Positions 3,846-40,158 of a stretch of DNA of 64,000 bases are shown here, in pieces. Origin of the DNA: Yuukianura sp. NJ FZ-2021 (lineage: Eukaryota); NCBI GenBank assembly GCA_046563655.1, contig CM102286.1, positions 6,882,001-6,946,000 of the forward strand. Direction: 5' to 3'. The position numbers and the translations under genes are program-made. Within the stretch, counting starts at the first letter, position 1; each line of letters opens with the position of its first letter. The notes beneath the pieces were generated by a model, which worked only from the letters and a program-made list of their open reading frames with translations, was not told the origin of the DNA and searched no databases.

Positions 3846-6505
3846 ATGACAAAAGGTTCTTCACTAGGGTCTGACGGTGATTTGCTGGAGAAAGTCGTCA
3901 CTCGCAGTCCAGACGAAGACGCGTGGAACGATGAAAATTTACTTTCTAACCAAAAATCCAAAGATATTGACCAAAATGCCACTCTAGATGACGACGCAAA
4001 TCCCATAACAGCGGCACTACCAGACGAGAAAAGTGGTTCAGGGGATCTTTTAGGACAGAAGGTTAGTGTCTAGTAGTCAAATCAACACTGCGTGGCAATA
4101 ATATTACCTTCGGAATGAATTTTTTCAATAGACGAGCGAGTCCATCCCACTGCAGCAAATTGATCCAGGTAAAGGTTGGAAACAAAACTCATCACTCCAA
4201 CATTTATTACTAAACTTTGAAATAATTTTTATTCACAAAAAAATTGTTGAAGGCCTCACAGATGAAGTTGAGTGGGTCGTACCTGACGGAGGATTTGCTT
4301 GGTGGGTGCTCTTTGGTTCCATTGTTGTTAACATTTTGATTCCTGGAACAGTCAAGTCTTTCGGAATTCTTTTCGTTGAATTTATTGAAGTTTTTCAAGC
4401 CACTGCCGCCGAAGCCGCTTGGATTCCCGCTATATCCTTCTTTCTTTATAGTTCGACAGGTTGGATTGACAGCAAATTGTTGAATTTTTTAAAAGCGTTT
4501 TCTCCAAAAAATTGAGATGAATTAATTTGTTTGCTTTTCAATTTAGGGCCATTTGCAAGTGCTTTGGCCATTCGGTTTTCTGATCGAGCAGTAACGGTGC
4601 TAGGTGGACTCCTCGCTGCTGCTGGACTTTGCTTGTCATATTTTGCAACATCAGTCACATATCTTTGTTTGACGTAAATTGGATTCTTTAATTGTTTGAA
4701 TCCATTACTAACCGTCGAGAGTAATTCAAAGTTTGCTTAGATATGGAGTCATCGCTGGACTTGGCTCCGGGCTATCTTATCCAATCGGAGTTTTCATCGT
4801 CGCACGATATTTTGACAGAAGGCGTGGGTTGGCAAATGGCTTGTGTACATCAGGGAGTGCCTTAGGATCCGTCCTAATGCCGCAAGTACTTCAATTTCTT
4901 TTGTCCAATTACGGATACAGGTAAGCTTCATATCATTAATATTGCAACTTTCGGAGTGTAAGCAGAAAATTATTGATTTCACTTTTCACTTTATCAAGAA
5001 AAGCAATAGTGATTGTGGGATGCCTGCTACTAAACGTTTGCGTGGTGGCCTTGCTGTGTTATGACCCTGTAGAGAAGCATTTGAAAAAGAGTCGACTAGC
5101 CAGTTACGTTCCCAAAGCAGACGAAGAGGTGTTAAAATTTGGAGCACAAAAATTTGCTCTTGAATTTTTGAAAGTCATGCTTTCGAAATTTTTCCATAGA
5201 CTGCCGTTTGTGTCCAGTCAGAGCCCATACCGATACCATACAAAAGACCAGTTTTCCAAATCGGGCAAGTGAGTTTAACACGTTAATTTGCAAATAATGG
5301 TCTACATTTGTTAAGCGTAGTTCAAATGAAATTCCATTGCGCAGGATACTCCCCCTGGCGAAGTTAGTTGGTCACCTCAGCTGAATGGTGGTCCAAGCCC
5401 TATGACCATCAAGCTGGCTCGGGAAGACAGTCACCATAGAAGTAATCGACCTCTAACAAGCAGTTCTATCACGCCAGATCCTTCTTCTGTTCAGTCAACG
5501 ACACACAGCAAGCTAAACTTAACAGCTATTCCAGAAGATGTGAACGACGCGGAAGTAGACTGGCACTTCTTCAGAGGATTGCCGCCAGCTAAGCAAAGGC
5601 TAATCAAGCTATCCACGCATGCGCCAACTCCTCCGTCCTCATCTGCACATCTCAACGGCCACACTTTACCGCTTCTTTCCCAAAGTCTGTCAGTAGGAGA
5701 AGGCGGTCTTTGTCCAACAATGAGCATCGTTTCCAATGAATCAACATCTTCGTTCCGCTACATGTCGACAATACATCATGGTTCTACTCTGGCAGCAATG
5801 CAGTGTGATGAGAACGTCAACAGGGTTCCCTCCACACTTCCGAATTCACCGCCATCGCGGAAATCTTCTGTAACACTTCAGAAGGTGCCATCTAAAGACA
5901 AAAGACGAAAGTTGTTTGACTTTTCTCTCCTGTCGTCTCCATTTTTCATAATTTTCCTGATTTCTTGTGGAACAACGGCTGTATCCTACACAAACTTTAT
6001 TATTCTGTTGCCTGCTTATGCCCATGAAAAAGGATTTCACAAGACGGAAGCTTCGTATCTGCTGTCATTGGTGGCAGCGTTGGATTTCGTTGGAAGAATC
6101 GGAGGAGCAGCATTGTCAGATCTCAAGCTAATTTCGCGGGAGTGGTTTTTCATTTTCGGATTGTTATGTTCTGGCATAACATTGACGTTTGTGCCTCTTA
6201 CGGGATCTCTACCTGGTGTCTCAGCGCTCTGCGCATGCTTCGGACTTTTCTCTGGAACATACATTGGCGTATCGGCAGTCATATTAGCCGATCGTCTCGG
6301 TCCGCAGAGACTTGGATCTTCGTATTCAATTTCATTGTTTGTGAACGGCATTCTTCAGCTTTGTGGCCCTCCAATTTGTGGAATACTGTTTCAGTACCTT
6401 CAAACCAACGAACCGATTCTCATCTCGCTCGGGATAATTCTGATTCTGGGATCTAGTTTATGGATTGCAGTACCATTTCTACCGCCTGAAAAAATGCATG
6501 TATGA
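3846..6505 (+). CDS. Monocarboxylate transporter family (SLC16/MFS), multi-exon
   Basis: VVPDGGFAWWVLFGS signature, YFDRRRGLANG motif and a long central loop. C-terminal TM half reads FDFSLLSSPFF...DFVGRIGG. The frame is open upstream to a splice acceptor near 3815, so an earlier start is possible. Confidence 0.88.
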
Positions 6506-7313: not shown

Positions 7314-13638
<6,325 letters not shown>

Positions 13639-15202: not shown

Positions 15203-18192
15203 CAATTAAAATTATTAAAATTAAAATTAAAATATTATTAAAATGACGCGACAATTGGATTGAAACTATTAAAAGCTTTTCCAAACATTACCAAAACACG
15301 AGCCGGCGGACGCAAACATTCTCAACAATCTTACTTCGACATCACTTGGTCCGCTCCTTCCAATGAGGATATCTCTACAACTTCTCTTGGGCTAAAGCTT
15401 GCTGACTTAAGAAAATCTACGTCCACACTCAAACACATTCCAAAAGGAGCAAGAAGAACGACCGCCTCTGCCCTGTCCACCATCATCGACCAAGCAATCG
15501 AGCACAACTCTACAGATTCTTGGGCAAAGTTATTCTACTTCCCCTACCAAGTTTTTCCCATTCCGTCAAAAGACGATGCTGTCACAAATCTAACCAAATG
15601 GGTGAAGACAAACGCTAGCCGTATCACTTCTGAGGCGCCTGCAAACATCTCCCATCATCAATTCAAGCAATTCTCTCGTGGCGATCATCCGTCCTCACAC
15701 CACTGTAACTCCTCAAAGGTCATTCAATCTAAACTAGCCGACGGGGATATACGCGGTGCAGTTCGAATCCTGGTCTCCGAAGATTGCATAGCCTCCAAAG
15801 ACTCTGATACTTTGAACATTCTCCACCAATTGCATCCCGATCATCCACTACCAACCTCGTTTCCTGCCGCACCTCCGAGATCTGAGGTTATCTTTGAAAA
15901 CTGTCACGTCATCAAAGCCATCTCGTCATTCCCAAATGGATCCGCCGGAGGCCTGGACTCTTTTCGTCCACAGATTCTAAAGGAACTAACTTCAAAGTCC
16001 TCAGGCGATGAAGGAGCAGCTCTTCTAGCATCAGTTTCTGGATTGTGTAACTTCATTACAAATGGTTCTCTTCCCGATGAAGTGAGACGAATTTTTTTTG
16101 GCGCAATTCTATTAGCAATCCAAAAGAAGAAAGGAGGCATTCGTCCTATCGCAATCGGCCTTACTTGGAGACGCCTCGTGTCTAAACTTATCCTATCTCA
16201 CTCGTTGAATGTCATTACTTCAACCTTAAGCCCGATCCAAGTTGGCGTTGGAATCAAGAATGGTGCTGAAGCCGTCGCCCACGCTGCCAGAATCTTCTGT
16301 AATGCCAACCATGGTTCTGCCAAGGTTCTACTCAAGATGGACTTTCGCAATGCCTTCAACTTAATTAGAAGAGACCGTATGCTGGACATTGTGAAGACCA
16401 TACTTCCAGACTTCTACAAATTCGTCTCTGAAGCTTATTCGCACGACTCAGATCTCTACTACGACTCTGCTTGCATCAAATCGAAACTAGGAGTGCAGCA
16501 GGGGGATCCCCTTGGTCCTGCTCTTTTCGCTTTAACAATCCACCAACTGGCCTCTACTTTAACCACTGATTTCAACATCTGGTATTTGGACGACGCAACG
16601 ATTGCCGATACTCCGGATGTCGTTCTAGAAAATCTAAAGTACATCCAAAGAGAAGCCTCTTCGTTTGGACTAGAACTCAACCTAAGGAAATGTGAAGTCA
16701 TCATCCTAAACGCAGACGCAGATGAATCCCGATCAATCGTCCAATCATTCCAATCTGTTTCTCCAGACATCATCTTTCCTGAATCTGATCAAGCTGAACT
16801 TCTAGGAGCGCCTCTTTTCAAAGAATCGACTCGTCGGATTCTCAAATGCAAAACAGAGTACTTCAAGTCACTCTCATCCAAGTTGTCGGAATTACCAGCC
16901 CACATCGCGTTCTACCTGCTTCGAGCTTCAATTTCCACCCCAAGACTTCTATATTTCCTCCGATGTGCTCCTTCATTTTTGGAAACCGATCTTCTCGAAG
17001 CATACGACTGTGCGCTACGTGCAGTGATGGAATCAATTCTCAACTCTACTTTGTCTTCACACGCTTGGTCTCAGTCAAGTCTGCCGGTGAACTTAGGCGG
17101 ATTAGGAGTTCGCCACGCTAAGGACTGCGCTACATTTTCGTTTTTGGCATCAGTCCATAGTTGTGCGGAGCTAATTTCTACATTTCTGCCGTCTTCCCTG
17201 TCACCCTTCGACAATTCAATGGATTTGGCTTTGTTCAACTGGTCTCAATTGGGCTTCGTTATTCCACAGGACAAAAAATCTCAGAACCTCTGGGAAATTC
17301 AAGTCTTTAAGCAAATTTCTTCTTCCCTAGTTCAGAACTCTTCAACCCTTATCGACAAAGCAAGACTACTGGCTGCCGCTGCACCACATTCTGGAGATTG
17401 GTTACACGCAATTCCCTCCGGGCAACTTGGAACTCTACTTTCGGACGAATCTTTTAGGATTTCTTGTGCTCTTCGCCTAGGAACTGATATATGCCAACCT
17501 CATATCTGCTCGTGCGGTGCTCCGGTGTCAAGTAACGGTCTCCACGGTTTAAGCTGTAAGCGTAGCGCCGGAAGACACTCGCGTCACAACTCAGTCAACG
17601 ACATAATCTTCAGAGCATTACAAACCGCTGGATTTCCTTCAATTAAAGAACCTGTCGGCTGCAGCAGATCCGATGGCAAACGGCCAGATGGTGTTACTCT
17701 CATTCCTTGGAGCTCAGGACGCTGCCTCTGCTGGGACTTTACCTGCCGTGACACTTATGCAAATTCCTACCTTTCGACATCGTCTTCCCGCTATGGTCAT
17801 GCAGCCGAATTAGCAGAGACACACAAACATCATCTCTATCGTGACCTAGAATCTCGCTTCGTGGTATCCATCATTGCCGTCGAGACATCAGGTGTATTCG
17901 GATCCGAAGGTCTTCGTCTACTAAAACAAATCGGACATCGGCTGTCAGAAGCATCTGGAGATAAGCGAGCCACGACCTTCTTCCTACAACGAATAAGCCT
18001 AGCTGTTCAACGCGGAAACTCCTGCTCAATCTTGGGAACCTTACCCTCAGGAAAAGATCTTTACGAGTTATTCATATTATAATCTAATTTAAATCCTACT
18101 TCTTTTCTCAACCTGCCTTTGGCAGGTGACAGTGAAATAAAAATTCAGCTTAAAAAAAAAAAAAAAAAAAAATAAAAAAAAAAAATAAAAAA
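15203..18192 (+). mobile_element. Non-LTR retrotransposon, RLE type (CRE-clade-like), 5'-truncated, with poly(A) tail and TSD
   Basis: The direct repeat AAAAAAATGTATTAAAATGA lies at 15183-15202 and 18193-18212. Poly(A) starts at 18152, after AATAAA at 18136. The element holds one uninterrupted RT-RLE ORF. Confidence 0.93.
15260..18082 (+). CDS. Reverse transcriptase + CCHC zinc knuckle + restriction-like endonuclease polyprotein (no ATG at 5' end)
   Basis: RT motifs GIRPIAIG, KMDFRNAFN, GVQQGDPLGP and WYLDD. Zn knuckle CSCG...HGLSC, followed by RHNSV. RLE KRPDG...WDFT...K. Confidence 0.93.
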   Translation: MKLLKAFPNITKTRAGGRKHSQQSYFDITWSAPSNEDISTTSLGLKLADLRKSTSTLKHIPKGARRTTASALSTIIDQAIEHNSTDSWAKLFYFPYQVFPIPSKDDAVTNLTKWVKTNASRITSEAPANISHHQFKQFSRGDHPSSHHCNSSKVIQSKLADGDIRGAVRILVSEDCIASKDSDTLNILHQLHPDHPLPTSFPAAPPRSEVIFENCHVIKAISSFPNGSAGGLDSFRPQILKELTSKSSGDEGAALLASVSGLCNFITNGSLPDEVRRIFFGAILLAIQKKKGGIRPIAIGLTWRRLVSKLILSHSLNVITSTLSPIQVGVGIKNGAEAVAHAARIFCNANHGSAKVLLKMDFRNAFNLIRRDRMLDIVKTILPDFYKFVSEAYSHDSDLYYDSACIKSKLGVQQGDPLGPALFALTIHQLASTLTTDFNIWYLDDATIADTPDVVLENLKYIQREASSFGLELNLRKCEVIILNADADESRSIVQSFQSVSPDIIFPESDQAELLGAPLFKESTRRILKCKTEYFKSLSSKLSELPAHIAFYLLRASISTPRLLYFLRCAPSFLETDLLEAYDCALRAVMESILNSTLSSHAWSQSSLPVNLGGLGVRHAKDCATFSFLASVHSCAELISTFLPSSLSPFDNSMDLALFNWSQLGFVIPQDKKSQNLWEIQVFKQISSSLVQNSSTLIDKARLLAAAAPHSGDWLHAIPSGQLGTLLSDESFRISCALRLGTDICQPHICSCGAPVSSNGLHGLSCKRSAGRHSRHNSVNDIIFRALQTAGFPSIKEPVGCSRSDGKRPDGVTLIPWSSGRCLCWDFTCRDTYANSYLSTSSSRYGHAAELAETHKHHLYRDLESRFVVSIIAVETSGVFGSEGLRLLKQIGHRLSEASGDKRATTFFLQRISLAVQRGNSCSILGTLPSGKDLYELFIL

Positions 18193-19938: not shown

Positions 19939-22139
19939 TCAATTAGAGATGAAAGGCTGCTTTTCAGTGACATCTAACTCATCACTGAGGTTGAGGCTAC
20001 TACAAGACGATGATGGCGAATGGAGTCCAGCGCGGGACAACCCATGACATATTCTCCTGTACTTCCGATTAGCGGTCTGTAATTTCCTAGGGAATGGATC
20101 ACCTGAATTAAATATGAGCATTTCAAACACTAAAAACAACAGGAAGCGTCTGAAGCAAAAGTTTCCTCATTTTTGCACACTCCAATCAAACGACGTTTCA
20201 AGCAGCGAAGGCTTCCAAAACTTTTGAACCCTATATCTTATTAATGCCTGCCGACTGCCTTCCAAACCCTCACTAGGCGTCATAGACAAAAACGGATGCC
20301 CGGTTTCCCATGTAGCCACCCCGGCTACTGGTCGGGGTCATTTTGACCCCGGTGAGGGGTGGAGGTCGTGGGGGAGTCGGGAACCCCAGTAAGGGGGGTG
20401 AAAAGTCGATTTTGGAACTAGGGCTGTTACGGATCCGGGTCCAAGATCCGAACCTGTAATCGGATCCGGTTTCGGTTCGGGTACGGTTCTGAATTGTGAA
20501 GATCCGTAACACCGGTTCCGGTTCCGGATCGGTTCCGGTTCTTATACTAGAACCGCCGGGTCCAAAAGTAGATCCGGACCGGATCCGGACCATAATTTCA
20601 AAAGCAGAAAATTCCCATCTCAATCGTGTGAATCGGGAATTTAGCAAAAAATCACTCGTGATTTTTTAGCAATTTCTGGAACCGGAGTGCCAGTAGAAAC
20701 ACTTTTCTATGTTGGGTCTAATCTTTTGTCATATAAACGTATGTCACTCAAACCGCAAAGTGCTATTGAATCCATATACGTATGAAACCCTGGCTGGAAT
20801 TTGGGCAGGAGAGAGAATTTGCAGCGAAGTAATTTATGGAGGGGGTAGTTGACAAGAGTAGTGGAATGGTATGTTAGATTAGAGACAATACGGTTGGGAT
20901 AAAAAAATAAATCTATCCTAAAATAGAATGGCGGCTAGGTTTTCGGATCCGGTTCCGGTTCGGATCGGATCCGGTTCGGGTCCGGATCGGATACGGTTCC
21001 CTTTATTTAAGTCCGGGACCAGCTACAAGACTAAGGTTCGGTTCCGGTTCTTTCAAGATCCGGACCGATCCGGATCCGTAACAGCCCTATTTGGAACACA
21101 TATTTTAAAAATTTTCGCCGATATCTTCATTGGGATGTTTCCTGACCGTCTTACCGGGGTCAAATTGACTTTCGTTCCCAAAAATTTCTTGCGCCTTCGG
21201 CGCAACAGTTTGTTTTTAGGGGTCCTTGGGTCCTCTGACCGGGGTCAAATTGACTTTCGTACTTCAAAATCTCAAAATTTCCTGCGCCTCCGGCGCAGCA
21301 AAATCGTTTCAGGGGTCTTTTGAGCCACTAACCGGGCTCAAATTGACTTTCCGGCCTCAACATCTCAAATTTTCTTGCGCCTTCGGCGCAAATTTAATTT
21401 TACGGAGGCTTCCATCTTGTCGGTTGAGTTTTCAAGCTTAAAAAAGCGAAGATTTCTTGCACCTTGCATATCTAGGGCCAATATAATTAACGATTTACGA
21501 AAACTAAAAAAAAAAGAAAAAAAAAGTTTTGACCCCGGTCAGACCCCCGTCCCCGGGACCCCGGGCAGCGCTGAGGCATCCGTTCATGTCTGTAACTGTT
21601 ATGTAACTGTTACATATACATTCGTCCAGCAGTTTCTACCAATAAAACTGAGTCCGCGCGTTATTTCGTAGTACGTAGCTTGACAAAGGGTACGTGGATT
21701 AGGTGTGTCAAGACACGGCTGAGGATTTGGGCTCATAAAGTGACAACTTTGACACTGCCAGCTTCTGCTGTCTCCCCAAAGTGTAAATAATGTGAGCGAG
21801 TTTGGAATTTGAAGATGACACGAGATGCTGCAAGGAAGATGAGAATTGAGAACAAACGCCAATTTATCCCAAACCTACTTCATTCCTATTCGAAATTTTA
21901 CGCGCAAAGGGGGTGACACCCACACAGTCATCCCCCCGTATTGCTTGATCCACCGTTTTTATTAGCCCCGCAAACATCAGCTTAAAAGACTCGGGTGTCG
22001 GCAGGGAAGCCTCTTTTCAAAAACTCGATTTCAAAGCATATTTAAAAAGTGACACTTGAAACGTCTCATCCTTCTCTAGCAGTGTCAATCTCTTTCACGC
22101 TTCAAACTTACACGTAAGTGCATAGAAGAACCAAGTCAT
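19939..22139 (-). CDS. Possible small two-exon gene (63 aa), tentative
   Basis: Exon 22139-22112 (MTWFFYALT, donor GTAAGT) joins in frame to exon 20102-19939 (acceptor TTCAG; CDPFPRKLQTANRKYRRICHG...QPFISN*). No homology support. Confidence 0.25.
20281..21594. mobile_element. Older non-autonomous DNA transposon (MITE-like) interrupted by a hAT MITE
   Basis: Imperfect TIRs CATAGACAAAAACGGATGCC / GGCATCCGTTCATGTCTGTA. Repeated GGGGTCAAATTGAC / TTTTGACCCCGG motifs and three GCGCCTTCGGCGCA-type hairpin units at 21181-21392. No clear TSD. Confidence 0.65.
20419..21089. mobile_element. hAT-type MITE (671 bp)
   Basis: Perfect 20-bp TIR TAGGGCTGTTACGGATCCGG. Exact 8-bp TSD TTTGGAAC at 20411-20418 and 21090-21097. 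Subterminal CGGATC/CGGTTC arrays. Confidence 0.92.
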
Positions 22140-23247
22140 ACCCGTTTTGTAAGGAAGCCTTACGAGGAAGTAAGTGACCGCCACTCTGCATGGCAGGTTG
22201 TGAAAGCATAGTTGTATGCTGAATTATTGGAAATTTGATATTCCTCCATTTCAACTTTTCAGTCAAATCTACAAAACCAAAAAGAAGAATAAAAATTCCG
22301 AAAAATCCATGCACTACATCAAAACTTCACCCGACACTTCACTGATTTTATAAATCTATGCACACAACACTCAAAATATATAAATCACACTTCCATTTCC
22401 AGACATAAATATATGTTAGTAAACACTTTACAAAAGTTTTCCACAAAAATAGCACCATTTTCCACTGAAATTCTTGGTTAGAAAACCATCACCTTCAAAA
22501 AAAAATTGCAAGCGACAGGAATAACTTTAGTTAAAGAAAAGTAGAAGTTCCACGCTCACCAAAATCCTTCGAATTTTGTAAAATCACGGTGAGTTATGAC
22601 CGCCTTGGTTTACCTCTTGACCTTGAAAGGTTTGGGAAATTTCAAATCAAATTCAAGTTTTCTGTTCCGAAGAACTGGAATTTGGCTCACTTTCCATTCC
22701 AACTACCAAGTTGTGGTAAAGAAAAGAAAAGCCAGGAGCTATTACCGATAGATAATATACAGCATCCTCAGTGTACGGATAAGATACAAGTTCGACCAAA
22801 GGACACAGAAAGTAGATACAACATTTCCATTACTCTGACCTCCACCTGCCACTTTTATACATTCCAAAATAAAAAGTAGTACATTTTTTGGCCCATGTTT
22901 GCAGTAGATTCCAAATTCGTAGAAAAAGTATCCAAATTTGGCGTTTTGAACGGTAAAATACTCTTGAAACGTTGTTTTCCACTCTCCCTTTGTAAAATCT
23001 TTGAACCAATCTCATACATTTCAAAAAAAATGTATCTTCTCCTTCTTCATCTTTCTCTTTTTTAAAATTTTCCACTTCTTGATAAAATTGAAATTTTGAA
23101 ATTCCAGTTGTGCTTTGAAGTGAGGAGCAACATGTGGCAAAGATAATAAGACAAAGAGAATGAAACTTCTGGAGTCCAGTACCATACCACAGTGGCCTCC
23201 CATCCAGAAAACCACGAGAGAAAGTTTTAAGGGGAAAGTGGAGCGGC

Positions 23248-23285
23248 TATAAAAGGCCTTTCGCCCAATACCCTCCACACAGTCC
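23248..23285 (+). promoter_or_regulatory. TATA box plus Inr-like element of the neuropeptide precursor gene
   Basis: TATAAAA at 23248-23254, with CAGTC about 30 nt downstream. It lies about 290 nt upstream of the ATG exon at 23538. Confidence 0.6.
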
Positions 23286-23537
23286 GCATTCGGAGTGAGT
23301 CCCCACCTCACTAACCTAACAAAAGACATACGTTCATCCCTTGGGCAAGACGCAAAGTACACCAAAGGACACCTTTTGTCGTTAACACTTTGTCTTTTCT
23401 TCATTAAACATAAGCTTTCTTCCGTTCAAGGGAACGTCACGCCTCAATCTCTTCATCTCGCACGAAACACAGAATTAAGGACTACGCACAAAACCTTACT
23501 CAAAATTACCCTTTCTTCAACTTTCTTCTTCACTACA

Positions 23538-26500
23538 ATGCTCTCCTATCAGTTGGTAAGCAAAAGACGCGTAACTAAATCTTTGTCAAAATCTTCAGTC
23601 TCTCATTCCATAATTTAATCCAGCAGAAATACATAACACAGCTTCCCTAAAATAGGACATGACGTATATTACATAAGTTTGCGACCAAATTCCTCATACG
23701 TTAATTAGTTTGCATAACATAACCCACCAATTTTTGCTATTGAAATGGGAAACATAGTCAAAAATTAAGTTGTCAAAACAACCTAAACAAACCTAGTAAT
23801 TAACTGAACCATATACTTTAAATCAAGAAATTTATCTTCAAATTATACCACATAAATTATTGATTTAATTACCCTAAACCGTTACCTTAAGTTATGTTTT
23901 AGAAATATGGCTTGTGTTTCTTTCAGGATTGGTTATGTAAAATATGCTTAGGGATGATAGGAGTACGTGTTGCTATGTAACGTTACTATGTTATGTAACG
24001 GGAAAGCTGGCCCCTGGAGGGGATGGAAAGCAGAAGCTCCCAATTAATTATTGCCTAAACGTTGCGTGTTTGGCGCCACGGTTTGAATGGCTTCTTTTAA
24101 TTCCAAATTGGAATGACTTTCAGCGCAGGAGGCAATTAAGAAAATTACAATGTCAAACAAGCCCTGTTTAGGCCTAGCTAAGGTAAATGCTTATACTTTA
24201 GGTTTCCGGCTTGGAACCTCTGCGGGTTAGAATTTGGTTGGGGTTAGTTAGTCGTAACATTCAATTCGGGTCGAGATTAAAGTCTAACTAGGTTAGTAGT
24301 TTTCAACCGATGAATAATAAGCTTCCGATGCAAAGAGCATCGGAACAACGCTTTATTTCAATTTTAAATCGAACAACAGATTAGGCTTAAATTGACTGAC
24401 AGATTGGTTGGCGTACCCGCTGCTAGGGGGTTGACAAGGTGTCAGCGATGGATTTTTTGTTTAGAAAATTCCAGAAATGCAGGAACTCATTTGAAATGTT
24501 CGTGACTTTCATTTGGGTTTTGGATTGATCTAGAATAGATAGTATGATTGAATTAATGCAATTTTATTTATGGCGTTGATATAATGGACAGGGGGTTGGT
24601 CTTTAATGGGAAAGTCAACCACAAGCATCGGCAGTCATCACGATTCTTAAATGAGCCTTCAAACAACCGCGTGCTTAAACAAACACCTCGTTTAACTACT
24701 TCCGCCTTCTCACCCGCCATTCGAAATGACCAAGTTTCAAGAATTTCTGTGACGCAAACTTTGAAATTAAAAAAGTTGCGCCATAAAGTAGAAGCCCTTA
24801 AGGTGTGACAGCCTACAATATCTGAATTGATTCGTTTTACTACTTTTCTTTTGCTCACGCCAAGAATTGATTTGATTTTCTGGAGAACTGGGTATAAATT
24901 GGAATCCATCAAAAATAAAATGGGAAGCAATTGGTTATGTGAAGGTGGTAAAACAATGATTTGAGGCGACTGGTGACGTGATTTGAGTGGTTGTATGGCG
25001 GGGGCATGGTGGTTGGGGGATCGGGTGCTGGCTGGAGGCTTCGTTTCCACTTCAAAGCACAACCCCCATTTCCAATTTGTTTCAACAAATAAAAACACAA
25101 ATAAAGAATCCATGACATCCAATTCCCAACACTACCTTACGTTTGTTACGCTCCACTCCTTGCAACCTAGTTAAGTTTTGTAATAGTTACACAGAGTTAA
25201 AGTAGTGCTAAGGCTCACAAAGTTCGCCAAAGTCCAAAACTTTACGGTTAGGCCACATTAGGTTACGGTACATATCACTCTGAGAAAGTTCGGCAGTGCT
25301 ACGCACGGCTAGTGAAAATTTCCGTCAGGCTAGTACTAGAAGAAAGCTGGATTGTGCTACTACAACACAATGCTTACTATGTTAGGTTATTGTCTAAAGA
25401 CTCTTGAGTTGAACATTGGAGCGTATTATAGCTTACATCCCCCACCCTAATTTAACCTAACCGCCCCCACATTGACTCAAATGAACATTTGAATTCATAA
25501 GGCGGACACTGTTCCAGAAGGAATCCTTAATACTGATTATGTCTCATCAATATTGATGAAGCTACAGATAGGCCAAGGGACTGTTCTAAGTCTCCGCTTC
25601 GATTGAGGGTTTTTTGAATGGCGTAATTGACTTAAAGAGTCCAAAAACATTAGTACCAATTTCCAATTCCAAAGACAATGAGAACAAGTCCCCAGAGAGT
25701 CCGCCCAATTCCAACACGGGTTCAAACTTATCTACTTTTTATTACCCGCTTGTTGCAGATACCCTCAAGTGTACACCCACTTTACTCTACTCACCTAACA
25801 TTAGGTTAACATTAGGCTAACACGGAGCTCTTGTACACGACACTTTCTCTCAAAAACTTTGCACCCCTCTTTCAAAGGTCTTCCGTAATTAGGCAAGCTA
25901 TCACACCATTAACAATGCCAAACACACCGAATAAACAGATCTGATGCCAACAGTCCTTAAAAGTTGACCGTCAAGTAAAAATGTCCAAAACTCTTTCTGC
26001 TTCTACAGTCTAAATACCAATCTACTCTACAACAGTATTGGTATTTAATTATCTCATTAAAACTGTATTGAAAAAGCATGATTATGGGTTGCCTAATCTA
26101 ACCAAAACTGGGGTTGTGGCGAAACCTGTGTGATTAAAAGTAACCTATTTATTTGAGAAATCAATTTTTTTTTTGGTAAAGCAGCACTCACTATTCTCAT
26201 TCTACTGGAAATTGATCAAAGGGGATATTTTTGAAATCTAAAAATGAAATGAGCTGTTTTCGAAAAGGAGGCCAACTTTTCAAAATATTTGTGTAAAAAG
26301 AGACAACGTGGTTAAGAACATTGCAAAGTTGGTGTGTGTTATTTTTATCAAAACAAATTTGTATAGATTATGTTAATTTACTATTCGGTATTAGGTATGA
26401 CAGGTATTACTTAACTCTATTCTCATTTTGTTCGCATAGGGTATTTTCATTTATTGCCTTATATGGTGCTTGGTTGAGCTAAAACCTACCGTAGTAAAGC

Positions 26501-29500
26501 CACAAACTTAACTGGCCTGGAGGTAACGTTATGCAACCTAACTATCGAAGAATTCAGCTTCCTCATTAGTGATGTAGGAGTTTAACTTTCTGTTGTTTTT
26601 TGAAGGAGTTTTATTTTATACATTCAAAAGGCAACTTTGGCTTTCTTCTATTCTACTCTGCATGCCCTTTCTCCTTTTTTTCTTTTTTTTTTCTTTCTGT
26701 TTTTAATATATTTCTTGTTGAAAATGTTGATATTTTCGCTGCAATCGGTTTTGTTCCTTGGAAGAAATGATGCTCAACATTATGTTATTATTTTTGAAGT
26801 GGATATACTCTCACATTCACTTATTTGTTTGAGTAAGTTCGTCCTACAAGTAAAAAATTTTCTTTTCAAAAGAATTATCTGTTTATCTTGGCGAACAAAT
26901 TTTGCTGGCCTTTATACCCACGATTTCATTTACATTTCACAAGAAAAAAGTCGTCTTACACTTAAACAAGGACGGAAACGTTGCTTGTGGTGTTATGGTT
27001 ATGTTATGCTAGCATTATGTTGTATTATGCAATATTATGTTAGGTCCCCTGTAAATGAAAGCGATTGGTGAAAGTGCAACGCGACATGACTTCTGTTAGA
27101 TTTTCAGTTTTCATGGTGGAAGTTGTGTTAAATTGGAGGAAGTGAATAGTTGTTTGGATTAGTTTAAGTCCGTGCGAGGGAGGAAGTGAAAACAAATGAA
27201 GTTTGGATTTGGCGTGGTTTTGTGGGTATTGAGCGCCCAGGATTCAAACTTTCCCCAATTAAACTCAACACACAGCAACAACTCCATACAGGGACTCCAC
27301 ATAACAAAAAATTGAAAGCAGCTACGAAGATTCTGCCAATTAAAACATTTCCCAACACACCAACTCATTAATAAAAGGTCAAACCAAAAAAGAGTAGGCA
27401 CTCAAATCTCAAAATTAGGTTAGGTTATGGTTAGTTTACCGCCCTCTACCTCTACAATTTTTTTTCAACTCTGAACTTTGACCTATCACCTCTGACTAAA
27501 ACCTAATACCCAATGTGGCGGAATTCATACATTTGTAAAGTGGCGGTATCGTACGTAATTTAGCAAAATTTTTGTGACGTAAAATGTAAAAGTACGTAAC
27601 ATTTGTCATTTTGTAAAATTTACGTGACGTACTGTACTTCGACGATTTAAGGAATCGAGAATAACGCTTCTGTTTCGATGGTATATATGTTTCAAGTGTG
27701 GGACAAGGAGAACGCCTTGAGCAAATTTGAGCGAATTTCGGCAAGGAAAATAAAAATGTACTATTTCAAAATTGACTCATTTCGGATAATTTCAGCGGAA
27801 AAATTGTAAAGCAAAAGAATATTATATGCAAGTTAAAAATTTGGATTTTTTTTTTAAATTGAACTTCTCTTCTTGCTTTAAGACATTTCACATTTAAATA
27901 GGCACTTAAACCGAAAAACAGAACACGAATTTTCTTAAAAGAGGGGGCGGGAATTTTGAAAATTGGTACATATCACTGTTGGAGGCTCCGAAATTGGAGC
28001 TCCCGCTTAAATTTTATTTCATTTTAAAAAACTGGAGGAAAATTGACGGTGTTTGGAGAAAGTTGGGTTTGATGGGGCTCTTTCCTGTCACGCGGCTGAG
28101 TGAGGTGTAATAACATTCAAAATTGTGCAAATATTGATTCGAATTCTTAACTTTTTCCGCTTCAGAAGGTTTGGCTCCCCCTGCAGCACTTTTAAACGGG
28201 AGCACGCCATTGTTTCAAATGAATTGTTTCAAAAAAAATTGTTTCAAAACAGCAGTTGTTTAGGGTTTAAGGCTTAGATTAGGTTAATTTGGATTAGAAT
28301 AATTAAGTTTAGGTTAGTTATGTAATTTTAGGTTAGGTTAGGTTATGTTTAGGTATGAAAATTAGGTTTTTGAAATAATTTTTTTTTGAAACAATTCGTA
28401 TTTGAAACAATTCATTTGAAACAATGGCATGGAACCCTTTTAAACAGCAGGGCCAAAATCATGTTACATTTGATTACACAATTTCTGCATCAGTTTGTAA
28501 CTTACCTACATGTTAAATTAAAGCTAGAAATGTTCCACAAATACTATCTCATTTAGGATCCCGAGTTCCCAGTTCATCAAATTTCTTTCATGTGAGGAAT
28601 GAACATCCGAAAGTTAAAAAATTTAGAAAGGACACTCCGACGCAAACATTTGAAAATTCAAAGTATAATAACGGCAGGGGTTTGGGAGTCTTCCAACAAC
28701 TGTAAACGTTTAACATGTACATTTGACCCTAAATAAAAATAAGCGCCCAAATAGTCTTTCTCCAATAAGTATTTCAATTTCTAAAATTCTGACTTTGACC
28801 TCTGACTTGACTTAGTTCACTGTTTCATTTATGTCATTATCTCAAAAGATCATCGTAAAAAAATTCAAAACTCGCAAATTCATAAAAATTATTTGAACCG
28901 AAACTTTGTACGTATACTCCGAAGTCTTAAATAAAATGAAGCGAACTTCCTCATATTTTCCAATGTCAAGAGAAAGTTCTAGTTACTTTCCCTTTCAGTC
29001 TAAAATTCGTCACTCTCCAACTCAATTGCAGGATACAGACAAGGAAATGCAAAAATGCAAATGTTGTTCACTACAAATAACGTATTTTTTATCATTCACT
29101 TTTCATTAATTTCGGAAATGTCGACAACAAAATTTAAAAGAAATTGATAATTGATGTCTAAAATTTTTTTTTAAATGCGAAATTGTAGAAACACGGCATT
29201 GTTGTAAGTATTTTTGCGTACACATTCATTTCGAACTTATGACGCATGTTGTTCTTGACAGTGGCACAGTTTGAGTTGGAATGCTAGGTTAAGGTTAGGG
29301 TAGTCTGACTTTGTAGCTAGTCCTAATGGAACAAAAACGCATTTGGAAAGTTAAGTTGTGGCCATAGTAAATAATAACTTGTTCACTTTTAGATTCTAAT
29401 TGAAGCCAACCTTTAAATGTTTGATTAGTTAATCAAGGGAGCGTCCGAAGAGCCTCGAACTTGAATCATGGGAAAGTGCACAAGATGAGTCCACTGGGAG

Positions 29501-31926
29501 ACAAGGGAAAGTGACGTGGGTAGAAAGTCCACTTTGGCCACCCCTCCCCACCCACTCCACCCACTCCCATGCATAACCACCAGTGTCTCCCACATTAAAA
29601 AATCATACTACTCCACTCAAAATGGCGACTCAGAGATTGTTCTGTGGTCCTTAAAAGCTCCCTCTGTCTAATCCACAAACTCTCCTAAGTACCAAACCAT
29701 CAAATCCCACAATGTTTATCTCTGAATGTACCGTATGAATAAAAAGGCGGAAGAAATTTGTCATAACTTTTGGATTAGAACTTAACAAGAAGTGGCATCA
29801 CTTGAATTAAACAAACTCAATTTACATAGTTGACAACCGCGAGTATCTTTGGATAAACAAGTTGTTTAGGCAAGAAACTGGAGAACCCTAAGATCTACGA
29901 TCTACCAGATACTTGTCTAAACACTTCTTACAACACGGAAAATAAAATTCCCACAAAACAAAGTAAAGGAATAATCACAATTTGCGGCTGGATTGTAAAA
30001 TAACAAAATAATGAAATTATGCAACACTTTGTACATCAAAGACCTCAATTAGCACCAAAGTCAACTTCGGCAACACGGTGTACACAGTAAAGGCTAATCA
30101 TTTCCCAACAAATTTATTCCAAGAATGCAAATTCTTTTCAAATTATAAGCGCGTGTTCGAAAACTTATACAGTTGCCGTTTTTTTTTCTAAATGTTTAAA
30201 ATTGAGTTATGCATTGTGAACAAAAAACTTTGGAGTTTTTTCCTGTGCATAAATTAGGATGTGTTTAATTTTCAAAGGGAAAATTGAACAGAAACAACTG
30301 TTGAATCCATACTTTGGAGTTCTCACTTTTGACTATTTCGAAAGCTGTTGAGGTGAATGGAGAAAAGTAAACAAGAGAAAAAAATTCACGTGCGAGTGAA
30401 AGATGAAAGTGAAGAGATTTTCCCCAGGGAAAACAATTGTTTTTCTTGAGCACAGACTTCCTAATAACCACAGGAACTCCCGCTATTTTGATAGCAGTAC
30501 AGTTCTTATTAGTCTTGACTTTTCCACTGCCTCCGGCCATTCCAGGGATAAATGTCCACTAGACTCCAAATTAATTTGAAATTGAGCCACTTTCGGCGTG
30601 AAACTGCCTTTGACCTTGTGCCCTCCACATGACTTCAAAGTTTGAGTTCCACACTCCTTAATCCAATGCCTCCGTTAGCACCAGAGAGCAGTCTTTGACT
30701 TTGTCACGAACAAAATCCTCACCAGTCCTTTAAAATCTATGAAATTTAAAACAAACTCTTTCAGAAAAAAACTAATTTAGAATAAAGTGGTGGAGAGACC
30801 TTAAAAGAACGTGCTAACTCTTTTGAAAACGCGAATCTCTTGTTTGATGTCCTTTGTGTATTGTATTCTCTTATAGACCTCGTTGCTGTGGGTGTGTTTG
30901 TCGGGCATCTGGCTGGTCCATGGAAAGCCCAATTCGGCCATCCCTGGAATACTCAGCCTTCCAGAATCTGGAAACGACCTCCGACATGGACCGAGATCAC
31001 TGGTCCACGCAACGGGTTGGGACAAGTCCTTCACAGCGCCGGGCCAACACGACATATTCCTGACTCCTCCATTCTCCCACAGCCACGCTTCAAGTCAAAG
31101 TAAGAAATGAATACCTATGTCACATCTTTAGTGCACAATTCATAAATGATTATCTATTAATTCAAAATTATAAGTATAATTGATTTATAAGTGTAACTAA
31201 CTGCGTATTGTCTATTGTGTAACAGATCTGGGCAAATCCGACGCCGTCAGGCAGAAAAGGACTCCGTCTGGATTCACAGCCCGCGGATTCCACGAGGGCG
31301 TCTTTGACCGAGACTTTGGCCACTTCTCCCCCGTCAAACGAACCTCCAAGCGTCGTCCAGAAGCCGGTACTTCTGAATTTTTAAATTTCAGCGCCAAAAT
31401 CTTAGCCTCTATAACCATACCGATTTATTGGTGTGATTCTCTGTTAGACGCCTCTGGATTCTACGGAGACACTTTCAGTAACGGATTTGGAGAATTTGAA
31501 ACCATGAAGCGAGATGACAGCTACCTGGTAAAAAAATAATACTACACATTCTATACACTTAATATTGTAACAAAAAAATAACAAATCTTATTTCCAACCG
31601 TCGCAGACTGAAGACGACATTCGACGACTGCTGAAGAGAACGGAGATGAGGGCCAATGGATTTGACAGCGATACTTTCAATCAGGTACGTAAATCCTATG
31701 TTGTCAAAATTTTCAAAAGCTTCAGGATTTTTAACTCAAGTTTTGGCTTATCGAAAACTCCGTTTTCTATTTCCAGGGGTTTGGAAAATTTGAGACAATG
31801 AAGAGGCGACTGGTGAATTTGGCAGAGGCGGGAGTGGTAAAACGAGGTCCAGAAATGACGAAAAGTGGATTTCACGGAGACGTTTTCACGAGCGGCTTCG
31901 GAGAGTTCCACCCAATGAAAAAATAA
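23538..31926 (+). CDS. Neuropeptide precursor (229 aa) with four GF-x4-F-x3-FG-x-F paracopies; resembles Carausius neuropeptide-like precursor (CNP)
   Basis: Exons 23538-23555, 30877-31099, 31226-31366, 31448-31527, 31607-31684 and 31777-31926 are all GT-AG with compatible phases (690 nt). Signal peptide MLSYQLTSLLWVCLSGIWLVHG. The repeats are flanked by KR/KK. Exon 1 is inferred. Confidence 0.88.
25536..25861. repeat. Copy 2 of the diverged direct duplication
   Basis: Aligns by eye with 19066-19391. Confidence 0.9.
28198..28437. mobile_element. Small MITE with GGG...CCC termini and a TTAGG-rich centre
   Basis: TIR core GCCATTGTTTCAAATGAATTGTTTCAAA and its inverse. Direct repeat TTTTAAAC at 28190-28197 and 28438-28445. 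Confidence 0.8.
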
Positions 31927-32365
31927 GAAGGGAGTACCCGTATTCGTTACCAAAAGAAGAGTGAACTATAGAATCAAACGTAGATACTCATTTCTTCACC
32001 GCAACTCATCAAAGTAATTCATCACAACTTAACACAACTATAATTAATAACCTTACCTTAATAACTTAGCATCAACTTAGATTTCTCTCCCATTGCTATT
32101 TGGCGTGAATTTGTTTTCATAAACTACAAATCACTCTTTCGAAGGAAGAAACTTTATGCGGGTTGACCTGTCATTGTAGTTGTAGTACAATCTCATATCT
32201 ACCTAAATTAGATACCATTCAAATAAAATCTTCAAAATTTTAAACAGGGTTCTCGGAGTTTTTCCTATTATAATTCAATTTACAGTAATAATAATTATTA
32301 TTAGGTTAATAGTTATATACTTCTTTGCCGCGTTTCAGGTGGACATCAAAAGTAGTACTAACAAG

Positions 32366-32798
32366 GAGTAGGCACGACCTGGTTAGTTTCGATTTTGATG
32401 AAATTTGGCATGTGGCCTTAGAATGACCCCAAATGACCTTCGAAATTTTCTTTCCATGCGATGGTATCATTGGACGGAAATCTTCAAAAACTTCAAAGTT
32501 TCGAAATCCTTACGATGGATATAACCTGCTTTTTTTTGCAAGTTTTACCGGTGCCATCCTCTGGCGATTTTTGATCGATTATACCGCTCATAATTAATTG
32601 TAATTTCTTAAAATTTGGTTCCCGAAAAATCGCGAAAAAGGGGATTCAGGGTTCATAAAGGATTTCAAAATTTTGAACTTTTTCAACATTTGGCAGAATG
32701 ACACCATTGCATCGAACGAAAATTTCGTAGGTCATTTGGGGTATTTCGAGGTCAAATGCCTCATCAAAATCTAAAATATAACAAGGTCGGGCCTACTC
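32366..32798. mobile_element. MITE-like element with long (>100 bp) imperfect TIRs
   Basis: GAGTAGGCACGACCTGGTTA...GATTTTGATGA...CCCCAAATGACC on the left is mirrored by GGTCATTTGGGG...TCATCAAAATC...AACAAGGTCGGGCCTACTC on the right. Confidence 0.75.
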
Positions 32799-32937
32799 TT
32801 TGTAAAAACCCTCGGCATCTTGATCTCTCTCGGGACGGTGACCATCAGAGGACGGCGGATTTATTTTTCCAGTTTTTACGCTTTCACGTTTATTATTTTA
32901 AAACGGATCAAATTTTTCAAATACTAACTACGACTAC

Positions 32938-34423
32938 TATGGGGCTTTAACAACGACACTATTCAAAATATTTTTATTTTTAAAAACTTCGTAAATTACG
33001 AGGTTGAAAATTTCCAACCCCGTAAATTACGAGGTGGAAAAGTTTCAACCTCGAAAATTGCGAAGTTGAAAATTTTCAACCTTGTAAATTACGGAGTGGG
33101 AAATTTCCAACCTTGTAAGTTGCGGAGTTGGAAAAGTTCCGGAGTCGAAAAGCGATGGCCCTTTTACGGAGTTGAAAAAGTTTACGAGGTTGGAAAATGC
33201 ACTTTACTTGCCTCCTAATTCCGTGGGGGGAGAGAGCTCAGAAGAAGGCAAGCCACCGTCCAGTGTTGCCACTACATGTTATGACACAGGGAATAATGGA
33301 CAAAAGGCTCAGTTTTGTCAAATCTGCTTGCACCGATACTACACTGTGAAAACGTTTGGTTGCATTGAACTGGAATTCCATCCGATGTAGCCACAAAGTC
33401 CAATTCCACCGTGGCCGTGCTTTTGCTACTACAGTTTGTGGTTTTTGTGTAGATTACACAATAACCAACAAAAAATTCCGTTGAAGTAAGCTTGGGCGAT
33501 CAGACTGTACCCACCCGTTCAAATTTTTGCGCGCTGCCATTGTAGCCACCCGTCGCATGGGTATCTTTGTACCCACCATAACCCAAAGTAATACGTCCAC
33601 CAAGCGGTAAACTCTAAATTCAAACTGGCAACCTTGTAAATCAATTTTCATTTTTCCGCGCCCAAGGCGCGGTGTGAGATTATCTAAATTGATTATTGCT
33701 TTCAATAACAATTTCATCGCCAAATGTTGCCAACTTGAATTTAGAGGTTAATTTATCGCCGCTAGGTGGACGTATTGCTTACGATGTTGGTGGGTACAAA
33801 TGTTCTCATCCGAAGAGGGGAAGCGACGGTAGCGCACAAAATTTTGAACGGGTATGTACAGTCTGGTCACCCAAGCTTACTTCAACTGAATTTCTTGTTG
33901 GTTACCGCGTAGTTTACACAGCTAAACACACTGTAGCCATGAAAGCATGGCAGCGGTTTCACTTTGTGGTTACATCCTATGGAATTCCAGTTCACTGCAA
34001 CCATACGTTTTCACAGTGTAGTATCAGTGCAATCAGATTTGACAAAACTCAGCCCTTTGCCCAGTATTCCCTGTATCATAACACGTAGTGGCAACACTGC
34101 ACAGTGGCTTGCCTTCTTGTGAGCTCTTTCCCCCCACGGAATTAGGAGGCAAAAAAAGTGCATTTTCCAACCCCGTAAACTTTTTCGACTCCGTAAAAGG
34201 GCCATCACTTTCCCACTCCGCAACTTTTTCAACTCCGCAATTTACAAAGTTGGAAATTTTGAACTTCGTAATTTACGGGGTGGGAAATTTTCAACTTCGT
34301 AATTTACGGGGTTGGAAATTTTCGACCTCGTAATTTACGAGGTTGGAAATTTTTGACCTCGTAATTTGCGAAGTTTATAAAAAATAAAAATATTTTATAC
34401 AGTGTCGTTGATAAAGCCCCATA
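32938..34423. mobile_element. Foldback-type palindromic element (~700-bp arms, ~28-bp internal tandem units)
   Basis: TATGGGGCTTTAACAACGACACT ... AGTGTCGTTGATAAAGCCCCATA. The arms stay complementary inward to about 33630/33725. Tandem CGTAAATTACGAGGTTGAAAATTTCCAACC units. TAACTACGACT is repeated on both flanks. Confidence 0.88.
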
Positions 34424-34934: not shown

Positions 34935-35741
34935 ATGGCAGAATGTTCTGGCAGTACTGGCAATGCCAGCGACGTTTTAACTACACTTAAGATTTTAATA
35001 ATTGGCAACTCTGGTGTTGGAAAATCCAGGTAAATTATATAACCTGAAGTATAGTATCCACGAGATGCAATGATTGACTTATACTGATTTTAATTCGGAC
35101 AAAACTTTTTAGCCTTCTCCTCAGATTTGTTCATGACACATTCGATGAAGACCAAGCTTGTACAATTGGAGTGGACTTCAAAGTCAAGACAATCTCTGTA
35201 GATGGAAATCTAGTGAAACTCGCCATTTGGGATACTGCTGGAAGTGAGAGGTTTCGAACTCTGTCACCAGCTTACTATCGCGGCGGACAAGGCGTCATTT
35301 TGGTTTATGACGTAAGCAACAGACCTTCCTTCGAACGTCTCACTCCATGGTTACAAGAACTTAGCACTCACTGTACGAAAACGAACATTGTCAAAATGCT
35401 GGTTGGCAACAAAATAGATAAGGTACGGCTCCTAATTCCTGAATCTGAAGACAGAATTTTGCTAATTATTTGGGAAATATTTAAACTGATGTCCGATGTT
35501 TACTGTGTAGGAACGGGTTGTAACAAGAGAGGAAGGCTTGCAGTTTGCTCGACGCCATGGCATGCTATTTATCGAAGCAAGTGCAAAGTCAAGTATCGGA
35601 GTCCGCTGTGCTTTTGAAGAACTTGTCCAAAAAATCATTCAAACTCCTGGGCTTTGGGAATCGGACAGGCAATTATCGGGATTCGCACTCCGAGATTCTA
35701 ATGCTACCGAGGATGAACAATCATCGTATTGCTCTTGTTGA
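34935..35741 (+). CDS. Rab18: Ras-related protein Rab18, 3 exons
   Basis: Exons 34935-35029, 35113-35422 and 35511-35741. [60 protein letters not shown] and a C-terminal CSC prenylation motif. Confidence 0.95.

Positions 35742-36288: not shown

Positions 36289-40158
<3,870 letters not shown>

Follow-up and report, generated by a model that had tools for sequence, protein, structure and literature searches.

A probable CNP1-type neuropeptide precursor gene of springtail-like character encoding four predicted non-amidated peptides

Introduction

CNP1, which stands for Carausius neuropeptide-like precursor 1, was reportedly first described by Liessem et al. in 2018. Products of this precursor have been identified by mass spectrometry in the brain and accessory medulla of the cockroach and in the brain of the pea aphid, and the published papers, as far as their text was available, still term the action of the family undetermined, in agreement with the preliminary description of the locus analyzed here, which knew of no established CNP receptor or function. 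A second insect precursor, PaOGS36577, is the same as Pea-NPLP (Periplaneta neuropeptide-like precursor) and fliktin. It is a recently described and functionally orphan 'neuropeptide-like' precursor that often stands beside CNP in lists, and in the tables available to us the two are entered separately. Fliktin is scored as a single-peptide precursor in a stink bug table and has a length of about 690 aa in Tenebrio, according to the excerpts consulted. Here we describe a gene, located in a 64-kb stretch of DNA (the window, i.e. the whole stretch that was analyzed), whose predicted protein shares the CNP1 layout.

Gene structure

The elements of the proposed gene, all on the forward strand, and one alternative first exon are:

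23248..23253, + strand: TATAAA, possible core promoter element; the sole TATAAA in 22801-23540
23538..23555, + strand: coding part of the proposed exon 1, which reads MLSYQL in 6 codons; donor GTAAGC
23556..30876, + strand: proposed intron 1, 7.3 kb, as implied by exon 1 together with the acceptor at 30876
29412..29436, + strand: short element within intron 1, conserved by blastn in the relative L005
30877..31099, + strand: exon 2, remainder of the predicted signal peptide (to 30924) and N-terminal spacer; acceptor ttatag
31226..31366, + strand: exon 3, peptide 1 (31261-31335, 'ARGFH' type) and start of peptide 2
31448..31527, + strand: exon 4, remainder of peptide 2 (to 31506) and spacer
31607..31684, + strand: exon 5, spacer and beginning of peptide 3 (from 31640)
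31777..31926, + strand: exon 6, remainder of peptide 3 (to 31800), spacer, peptide 4 (31846-31917) and KK
31924-31926, + strand: stop TAA, end of exon 6
32222..32227, + strand: AATAAA, possible polyadenylation signal; the sole AATAAA/ATTAAA in 31927-33000
24150-24182: alternative exon 1; 11 codons, two Lys; donor AG/GTAAAT, tied for the best donor score

Exons 2-6 (30877-31926) are joined in frame, and a script check showed that every internal boundary is GT..AG. Together with the proposed 18-nt exon 1 the six segments form a CDS of 690 nt that translates in frame into 229 aa plus stop. The predicted splicing of exons 2-6 at this locus is based on sequence rules and on the relatives: an in-frame TAG is located directly 5' of the start of exon 2, an acceptor is present at the equivalent position in three genomic relatives (L002, L004 and L005), and the sequences of the relatives continue across the exon 4 junction without a break. 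Intron 3 interrupts a codon of peptide 2, and intron 5 falls between two codons of peptide 3; therefore no single ORF holds either peptide. Thus, the six proposed short exons encoding 229 aa, the TATA box ahead of a candidate 18-nt ATG exon (the TATAAA at 23248) and the introns that split two peptide copies so that ORF finders miss them, all put forward in the preliminary description, were recovered in our analysis. This illustrates how easily annotation can overlook peptide genes that are short, are divided by introns and have a very small first exon lying far away.

No further copy of the peptide motif was found in a six-frame translation of the 64-kb window, and two ORFs inside intron 1 had no match in Pfam. 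In the relatives, too, no first exon was present close by. When compared with L005 by blastn, the only match beyond the exons was the intron 1 element at 29412-29436, which aligns with L005 1579-1604 (25/26 nt, E 5e-4). A neighbouring MFS exon has its best named matches in insects, at 40-52% identity.

Predicted peptides and processing

Basic sites at residues 91, 118, 122, 148, 164, 189, 202 and 228 bound four peptides of 23-25 aa, none of which has a C-terminal Gly, so that the earlier reading of four dibasic-flanked, non-amidated peptides holds. The N-terminus, whose Met depends on the proposed exon 1, has a hydrophobic core with a 9-residue Kyte-Doolittle mean of up to 2.3 at residues 6-14, and full-length relatives have N-termini that are hydrophobic at the start. 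The n-region of the predicted signal peptide, as given by the proposed exon 1, carries no positive charge, and at the N-terminus of the window protein a K is preceded by V-H-G, where the counterpart in the relatives is V-x-A. Peptide 3 deviates at mostly conserved positions, with D-S-D instead of H/Y-G-D and a K inside GFG.F, and it contains an internal Arg, by which a shorter product could result.

In general prohormone biology, processing involves a signal peptide, a convertase and a carboxypeptidase. By this scheme, the 229-aa protein would enter the secretory pathway by means of a predicted signal peptide of ~22 residues. Cleavage by prohormone convertases would occur at KR, KRR and KK, after which the basic residues would be trimmed by a carboxypeptidase. 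The products would be four linear and acidic peptides, rich in Phe and Gly, whose C-termini are free: one of the N-terminal 'ARGFH..F..DFG.F.PV' type and three of the 'SGF.GD.F..GFG.F..M' type. Once released, the peptides might act as neuronal or endocrine messengers via a putative receptor, a role that is assigned by analogy to this functionally orphan family. For the source species, we infer cleavage into these products, expression and signalling.

Relatives and family assignment

A phmmer search against 1.84 billion representatives, with a query that included an intron-coded part, gave 89 matches with E<=1e-3, of which 43 reached <=1e-10 and 12 reached <=1e-30. The best E was 4.8e-62, and homology at this level excludes a chance arrangement. 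The core peptide motif was present in 84 of the 89 matches, and among the dibasic-delimited peptides of the matches 0/261 end in Gly. Five matches were without the motif; the four of these that were inspected belong to other kinds of protein, long and repetitive, which match in part the intron-coded stretch of the query, and they were set aside as false positives. All 20 named clusters come from hexapods and crustaceans, the closest from a springtail, and the peptide cores can be made out over a range that extends from copepods and barnacles to insects. A collection of 5.8 billion sequences yielded no protein that contains exon 2.

The best named relative is P0092, an 'unnamed protein product' of Allacma fusca (Collembola), which likewise shows the four-peptide layout and whose last peptide is, by eye, nearly identical to that of the window. 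P0092 differs by a 28-residue stretch before the junction within the signal peptide. A second Allacma model, P0027, lacks peptide 1.

The link to CNP1 was given by one cluster, that of the match P0023, which holds the Schistocerca gregaria protein P0227, named 'carausius neuropeptide-like precursor 1 -1'. When window ORFs were compared with this protein by BLASTP, the E values were 4e-16 (ORF 31201-31536) and 1e-12 (ORF 31735-31923), and the ORFs and P0227 are collinear, with the ARGFH-type peptide first. This was further supported by the Carausius CNP1 sequence (supplement of PMC10764246), which has the same two peptide types as the window protein. Compared with Carausius, P0227 and the other matches, the window protein has the same architecture, an N-terminal 'ARGFH..F..[DE]FG.F.P[VM]' peptide followed by 'GF.GD.F..GFG.F..M' copies, and like CNP1 it combines one 'ARGFH' peptide and subsequent 'SGF.GD.F..GFG.F..M' repeats with dibasic flanks around all four copies, no Gly before the sites and predicted free C-termini. 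CNP1 precursors begin with a signal peptide, and the N-terminus of the window protein may be one as well. Hence, the gene is by sequence a further member of the already known CNP1 family, and the locus very probably encodes a CNP1 neuropeptide precursor of the springtail-like kind. With 229 aa and four peptides, the precursor is short compared with 404 aa for locust CNP1 and with the damselfly member, which reaches up to 814 aa and about 10 copies. The window protein contains a Glu-rich 'GFGEF' variant and its peptide 2 starts with 'RPEAD', as is common to the springtail-like relatives. Aphid CNP1 is said, in the text available to us, to contain two amidated peptides as well, whereas none is present in the window protein.

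The preliminary description saw a peptidergic gene resembling 'CNP/PaOGS36577', or else an undescribed family. Homology to CNP (phmmer, BLASTP and the Carausius sequence) supports a secretory multi-copy peptide precursor and shows that the resemblance to CNP is real, whereas PaOGS36577, i.e. fliktin, is a separate family in the papers as far as consulted. The aphid fliktin peptide, as quoted there, is an unrelated 11-mer, and when compared by reading it had no counterpart in the window protein; an identity with fliktin is not supported on this reading. An undescribed peptide family would fit with the result that neither the three peptide exons of the window nor six relatives belong to any Pfam family (sub-threshold chance matches only), and with the labels of the public entries: among 23 named or labelled clusters that were looked up, one has the CNP1-named entry, another bears no label but 'status=active', and the remaining ones are uncharacterized, hypothetical or unnamed. 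However, the direct similarity to the CNP1-named S. gregaria protein and to the published Carausius sequence refutes an undescribed family and leaves it next to no chance. A string search of the literature gave no match for twelve 8-9-residue strings of the peptides. Pedal peptide/orcokinin-type peptides are multi-copy, non-amidated and acidic, with an S-G-F core and dibasic flanks, and the window peptides would resemble them at the level of this general description; a precursor of this type from a non-arthropod invertebrate was considered and dropped once the CNP1 match appeared. A protein-atlas comparison of the relative P0093 returned only arthropod neuropeptide precursor clusters of a generic kind (0.87-0.91, low recognition), with none of the pedal peptide/orcokinin family among them, and is no more than a lead.

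The first coding exon

Between 18101 and 30876 there are 183 open ATG..GT candidates in phase 0, and the exon at 23538 has the joint best donor score among them. Five candidates in this region have the form ATG, 15 nt and GT, and that at 23538 alone fits M..[WY][QH][LF], a pattern taken from the six-residue N-termini of the related ORFs P0093 and P0090. In both ORFs the conserved junction is preceded by six residues exactly, of which positions 4-6 are an aromatic residue, Q/H and L/F, just like those of the exon at 23538. The start of P0093 is fixed by upstream in-frame stops. In addition, the ATG at 23538 is the first after a 378-nt ATG-free run, and the TATAAA lies 290 nt upstream of it. These features suggest that 23538-23555 is probably the true first coding exon. 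An exon consisting of the ATG only was also considered, as exon 2 supplies five residues before a V-C-L triplet shared with the relatives; it was rejected because the acceptors in L002 and L004 directly precede the triplet, and therefore the six residues of P0093 and P0090 are their exon 1.

It is unlikely, yet still worth serious consideration, that the same CNP1 gene uses another first coding exon, e.g. 24150-24182, or one outside the stretch examined. The candidate at 24150 shares the top donor score among the 183 and its two Lys would provide a charged n-region of the classical kind. In the Allacma gene model 28 residues rather than 6 stand ahead of the equivalent junction, and therefore exon 1 can differ in length within the group; a counterpart of exon 1 in the genomic relatives was located neither by blastn nor by pattern. 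On the other hand, many ATGs precede 24150 within 250 nt, whereas 23538 follows an ATG-free run behind the TATAAA, and the N-termini of P0093 and P0090 also speak for the exon at 23538.

Selection and possible role of the peptides

The relative L005, a genomic sequence from a metagenome, has the same intron positions as the window gene and identical exon lengths of 141/80/78 nt (exons 3/4/5). Over 99 gap-free codons 74/99 residues are identical, differences at codon positions 1/2/3 number 18/10/50, and pN is 0.133 vs. a pS of 0.705. The low pN relative to pS together with the identical exon lengths shows, at the sequence level, that the gene is under purifying selection. This contrast, the equal exon lengths, the five exon-coded segments that are all open and the splice sites that are all intact leave only a very remote chance of a pseudogene in decay or of ORFs that lie in this arrangement by accident. 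A slim chance, somewhat larger than that, is that the products are secreted but are not receptor ligands, being inert and spacer-like or having some other extracellular role, and thus 'neuropeptide-like' in form only. Several authors, in the texts available to us, do file the CNP1 family under 'neuropeptide-like'. However, the peptide cores are far better conserved than the spacers (peptide 1 is 24/25 identical to L005) and can be recognised across copepods, barnacles and insects, which is the pattern expected of ligands rather than of spacers. The very strong conservation of the cores against variable spacers thus argues for a ligand.

As a member of the CNP1 family, the gene would add a non-insect hexapod to a family that, in the published text consulted, was detected by mass spectrometry in insect brains, and its four peptides are a small candidate set for receptor screening. 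A more speculative idea, which we regard as doubtful, is that CNP1-type precursors form an ancient pancrustacean signalling system with two conserved ligand types (ARGFH and SGF.GD), maybe distant kin to orcokinin/pedal peptide and maybe lost in at least some Holometabola. If this were true, the springtail-like gene, compact and with four peptides, would represent a minimal version suitable for receptor finding.

CNP1-type sequences were observed in copepods, barnacles, malacostracans, springtails and hemimetabolous insects, and almost everywhere they are annotated as 'uncharacterized'.

The peptide precursor gene and its predicted products

Inspection of the stop-to-stop ORF list and of positions 23400-23800 and 30700-32100 showed a repeated peptide motif on short open segments of the + strand, and six-frame translation of the window placed this motif at the peptide locus only. 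With exon borders set by script, a six-segment model was obtained in which every intron has a GT donor and an AG acceptor.

Features of the peptide locus
23248, +, TATAAA upstream of 23538
23538-23555, +, exon 1 (proposed)
30877-31099, +, exon 2
31226-31366, +, exon 3
31448-31527, +, exon 4
31607-31684, +, exon 5
31777-31926, +, exon 6
32222, +, AATAAA, 296 nt downstream of the stop

The joined coding sequence of 690 nt encodes 229 residues followed by TAA, in agreement with the in-frame protein of this length proposed in the preliminary description. The four peptides listed there are delimited exactly by basic pairs or triplets (residues 91, 118, 122, 148, 164, 189, 202 and 228), and none of the four is followed by Gly, in agreement with the claim that they are not amidated. 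Two copies are indeed split: intron 3 interrupts a codon of peptide 2, and intron 5 separates adjacent codons of peptide 3. Intron 3 (31367-31447), 81 nt long, keeps the frame and has no stop, so that ORF 31201-31539 continues through it; its retention would yield a peptide 2 extended at the N-terminus.

Assignment to the CNP1 family

Pfam gave no match for the peptide exons of the window. A phmmer search of 1.84 billion representatives with ORF 31201-31536, which covers exon 3, the read-through intron and exon 4, returned 89 matches at E≤1e-3, of which 43 reach ≤1e-10 and 12 reach ≤1e-30; many of them contain 5-12 matched stretches each. By regular expression, 84 of the 89 carry at least one copy of the core motif, and Gly is never the last residue of the 261 copies delimited by dibasic sites (M 173, A 30, V 27, L 16, others 15). 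Five matches lack the motif, and the four examined belong to other kinds of long repeat protein.

The cluster of one matched protein, P0023, includes an entry from Schistocerca gregaria with the deposited name 'carausius neuropeptide-like precursor 1 -1' (CNP1), and this named entry settles the family assignment. When the window ORFs 31201-31536 and 31735-31923 were compared with it by BLASTP, as the preliminary description had proposed for CNP sequences, E values of 4e-16 and 1e-12 were obtained, in a collinear alignment that has the ARGFH type peptide ahead of the SGF.GD.F..GFG.F..M type. Compared by eye, the CNP1 sequence of Carausius morosus given in Table S2 of the supplement to PMC10764246 contains both window peptide types, the second three times.

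The label 'CNP/PaOGS36577' given earlier therefore stands for its CNP half only, and the suggestion of an undescribed family falls, since the locust match was deposited under the CNP1 name. PaOGS36577 is equated with the Periplaneta neuropeptide-like precursor and with fliktin (PMC9552230; PMC12604039), a stink bug paper tabulates PaOGS36577 and CNP separately (PMC10570428), and the aphid peptide of PaOGS36577/fliktin is an unrelated 11-mer (PMC13302288); the label merges two families.

CNP1 was reported from a stick insect and later from cockroaches, termites, aphids and others (including PMC12604039 and PMC13302288), and was reported as not found in tenebrionid beetles. Mass spectrometry is reported to have revealed its products in the brain and accessory medulla of cockroaches and in the brain of aphids (including PMC12604039 and PMC13302288), and the action of CNP1 and similar new peptides 'has yet to be determined' (PMC13302288). 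The gene described here is a previously unreported member of this known, functionally orphan family.

Comparison with genomic relatives

The nine closest proteins were aligned, and six loci were obtained when metagenome contigs were scanned with this alignment. One of these, L005, lies on a 12.7-kb genomic contig and has introns at the same four places as the window gene, with GT..AG borders throughout and exons 3, 4 and 5 of the same lengths (141, 80 and 78 nt). Over these exons 99 codons align without a gap, with 74/99 residues and 219/297 bases identical, pN of 0.133 against pS of 0.705, and 18, 10 and 50 differences at codon positions 1, 2 and 3. Peptide 1 differs by one residue, whereas the spacers vary freely. 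Intron 3 of L005 contains a stop, and other relatives are continuous across the exon 3/4 junction, which argues for splicing rather than retention of this intron. The window gene is an intact, selected multi-copy CNP1 precursor, probably of secretory type.

Copy number varies among close relatives, as the last exon of L005 (3536-3616) has no fourth peptide and P0093, an ORF from a short contig, has an unrelated spacer instead of a third peptide. In two further loci (L002 3001-3498 and L003 476-720) the peptide-coding part is unbroken, without introns between or inside copies, and the copy-splitting introns of the window and L005 are thus lineage-specific.

In blastn of window positions 20001-33000 against the six loci, only exons 3-6 and one 26-nt element were matched. 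This element (29412-29436 in intron 1; 1579-1604 in L005) is identical at 25/26 nt, the remaining intron being unalignable, and has an inverted TGATTA..TAATCA pair that looks like a homeodomain-type site. A conserved regulatory role for this element is possible.

The first exon

Exon 2 lacks a Met and is immediately preceded by an in-frame TAG, and an upstream exon is therefore required. At three loci (L002, L004 and L005) an acceptor is found at the equivalent point, 15-16 codons ahead of the predicted signal-peptidase site. Two related ORFs from short contigs have just six residues ahead of this junction, MSCWQF in P0093 and MFVWHL in P0090; the contig of P0093, L001, has upstream in-frame stops and no other ATG, and its bases agree with the start of the L002 exon only downstream of the junction.

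Between 18101 and 30876 there are five candidates of the form ATG, 15 nt and GT without a stop. The one at 23538 (MLSYQL) is alone in having an aromatic residue, Q/H and L/F at positions 4-6, a pattern set after viewing all three sequences and hence indicative rather than a test. Its donor has the joint best score among 183 candidates of any length, its ATG has an A at -3, and it is the first ATG after 378 ATG-free nt (17 of the 961 gaps between successive ATGs in the window reach at least 300 nt and 6 at least 400 nt), with the TATAAA at 23248 as a further point in its favor. A rival first exon at 24150-24182 would match this donor score and bring a charged n-region, although many ATGs precede it. 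On balance we favor 23538-23555, the 18-nt exon behind a TATA box of the preliminary description, as the reasonably likely first exon. Against this choice, besides the rival at 24150-24182, no exon 1 was located in relatives, where 1845, 1080, 2657 and 2900 nt held 0, 1, 1 and 1 unconvincing candidates, and the Allacma model has 28 residues at this position as compared to six in the proposed window exon.

Proposed processing

By analogy with general prohormone processing, the signal peptide would be removed after residue 22, a convertase would cut at the basic sites and a carboxypeptidase would trim the ends, giving one ARGFH-type and three SGF.GD-type free-acid peptides that would act on a putative receptor. 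Near-invariant cores set against variable spacers are the pattern shown by ligands. Of the four copies, peptide 3 diverges most, and an internal Arg may allow a second cut. On resemblance, CNP1-type peptides may be linked to the orcokinin/pedal peptides.

Taxonomic spread

The closest relatives of the peptide gene are from environmental contigs (82-86% over the matched part), and the best named one is from the springtail Allacma fusca, with an identical four-peptide layout. The window itself is likely to derive from a springtail or from some other basal hexapod. Names were sought for 30 of the 89 phmmer matches, which together with one further search gave 20 species-named clusters. Eleven are hexapod: Odonata (Hetaerina, Ladona), Ephemeroptera (Cloeon), Orthoptera (Schistocerca), Phasmatodea (Timema, Bacillus), Hemiptera (Nilaparvata, Cimex, Bemisia, Adelges) and Collembola (Allacma). 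Nine are crustacean, comprising decapods, a stomatopod, an isopod, two amphipods, barnacles (3 clusters) and a copepod. Of the entries looked up that had a name or label, the locust one alone is called CNP1, the rest being uncharacterized, hypothetical, unnamed or, in one case, 'status=active'. No holometabolan, chelicerate or myriapod was present among the 20 named clusters (30/89 matches looked up), a gap that lineage loss may explain.

In the literature searched, the CNP1 name was found for insects and in one computational cleavage-site study using Carausius precursors. Neither a paper tying it to Collembola or crustaceans nor, in main texts, the family peptide strings were found, and supplements may list orthologs. 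The reach of the family across crustaceans and hexapods is a lead that extends beyond this window.

Genomic surroundings

The window is animal DNA, with short introns, a reverse-transcriptase ORF and exons of known protein families, and the neighboring exons are those of a gene-dense animal genome.

Other features of the window (strand where assigned)
5330-6505, MFS/monocarboxylate-type transporter exon
12314-12721, ABC transporter exon
15242-18082, +, reverse-transcriptase ORF
35078-35617, Ras/Rab-type GTPase exon
39256-39891, -, Sec23 exon
50246-50692, -, PRP39-like HAT repeat exon
57245-57691, SDF (sodium:dicarboxylate symporter family) exon
62960-63400, TPR protein exon

The best named relatives of the MFS exon are insects (40-52% identity). 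The reverse-transcriptase ORF is unbroken over 946 aa (RVT_1, E 1.2e-17). It lies 5.5 kb upstream of the proposed promoter and probably represents a young non-LTR retroelement. Both strands of 20273-21323 carry long ORFs whose translations are repetitive and rich in Pro/Arg/Gly/Ser, and G+C is raised there (0.46); Pfam gave no match for one of these ORFs, and the stretch may be a repeat element.
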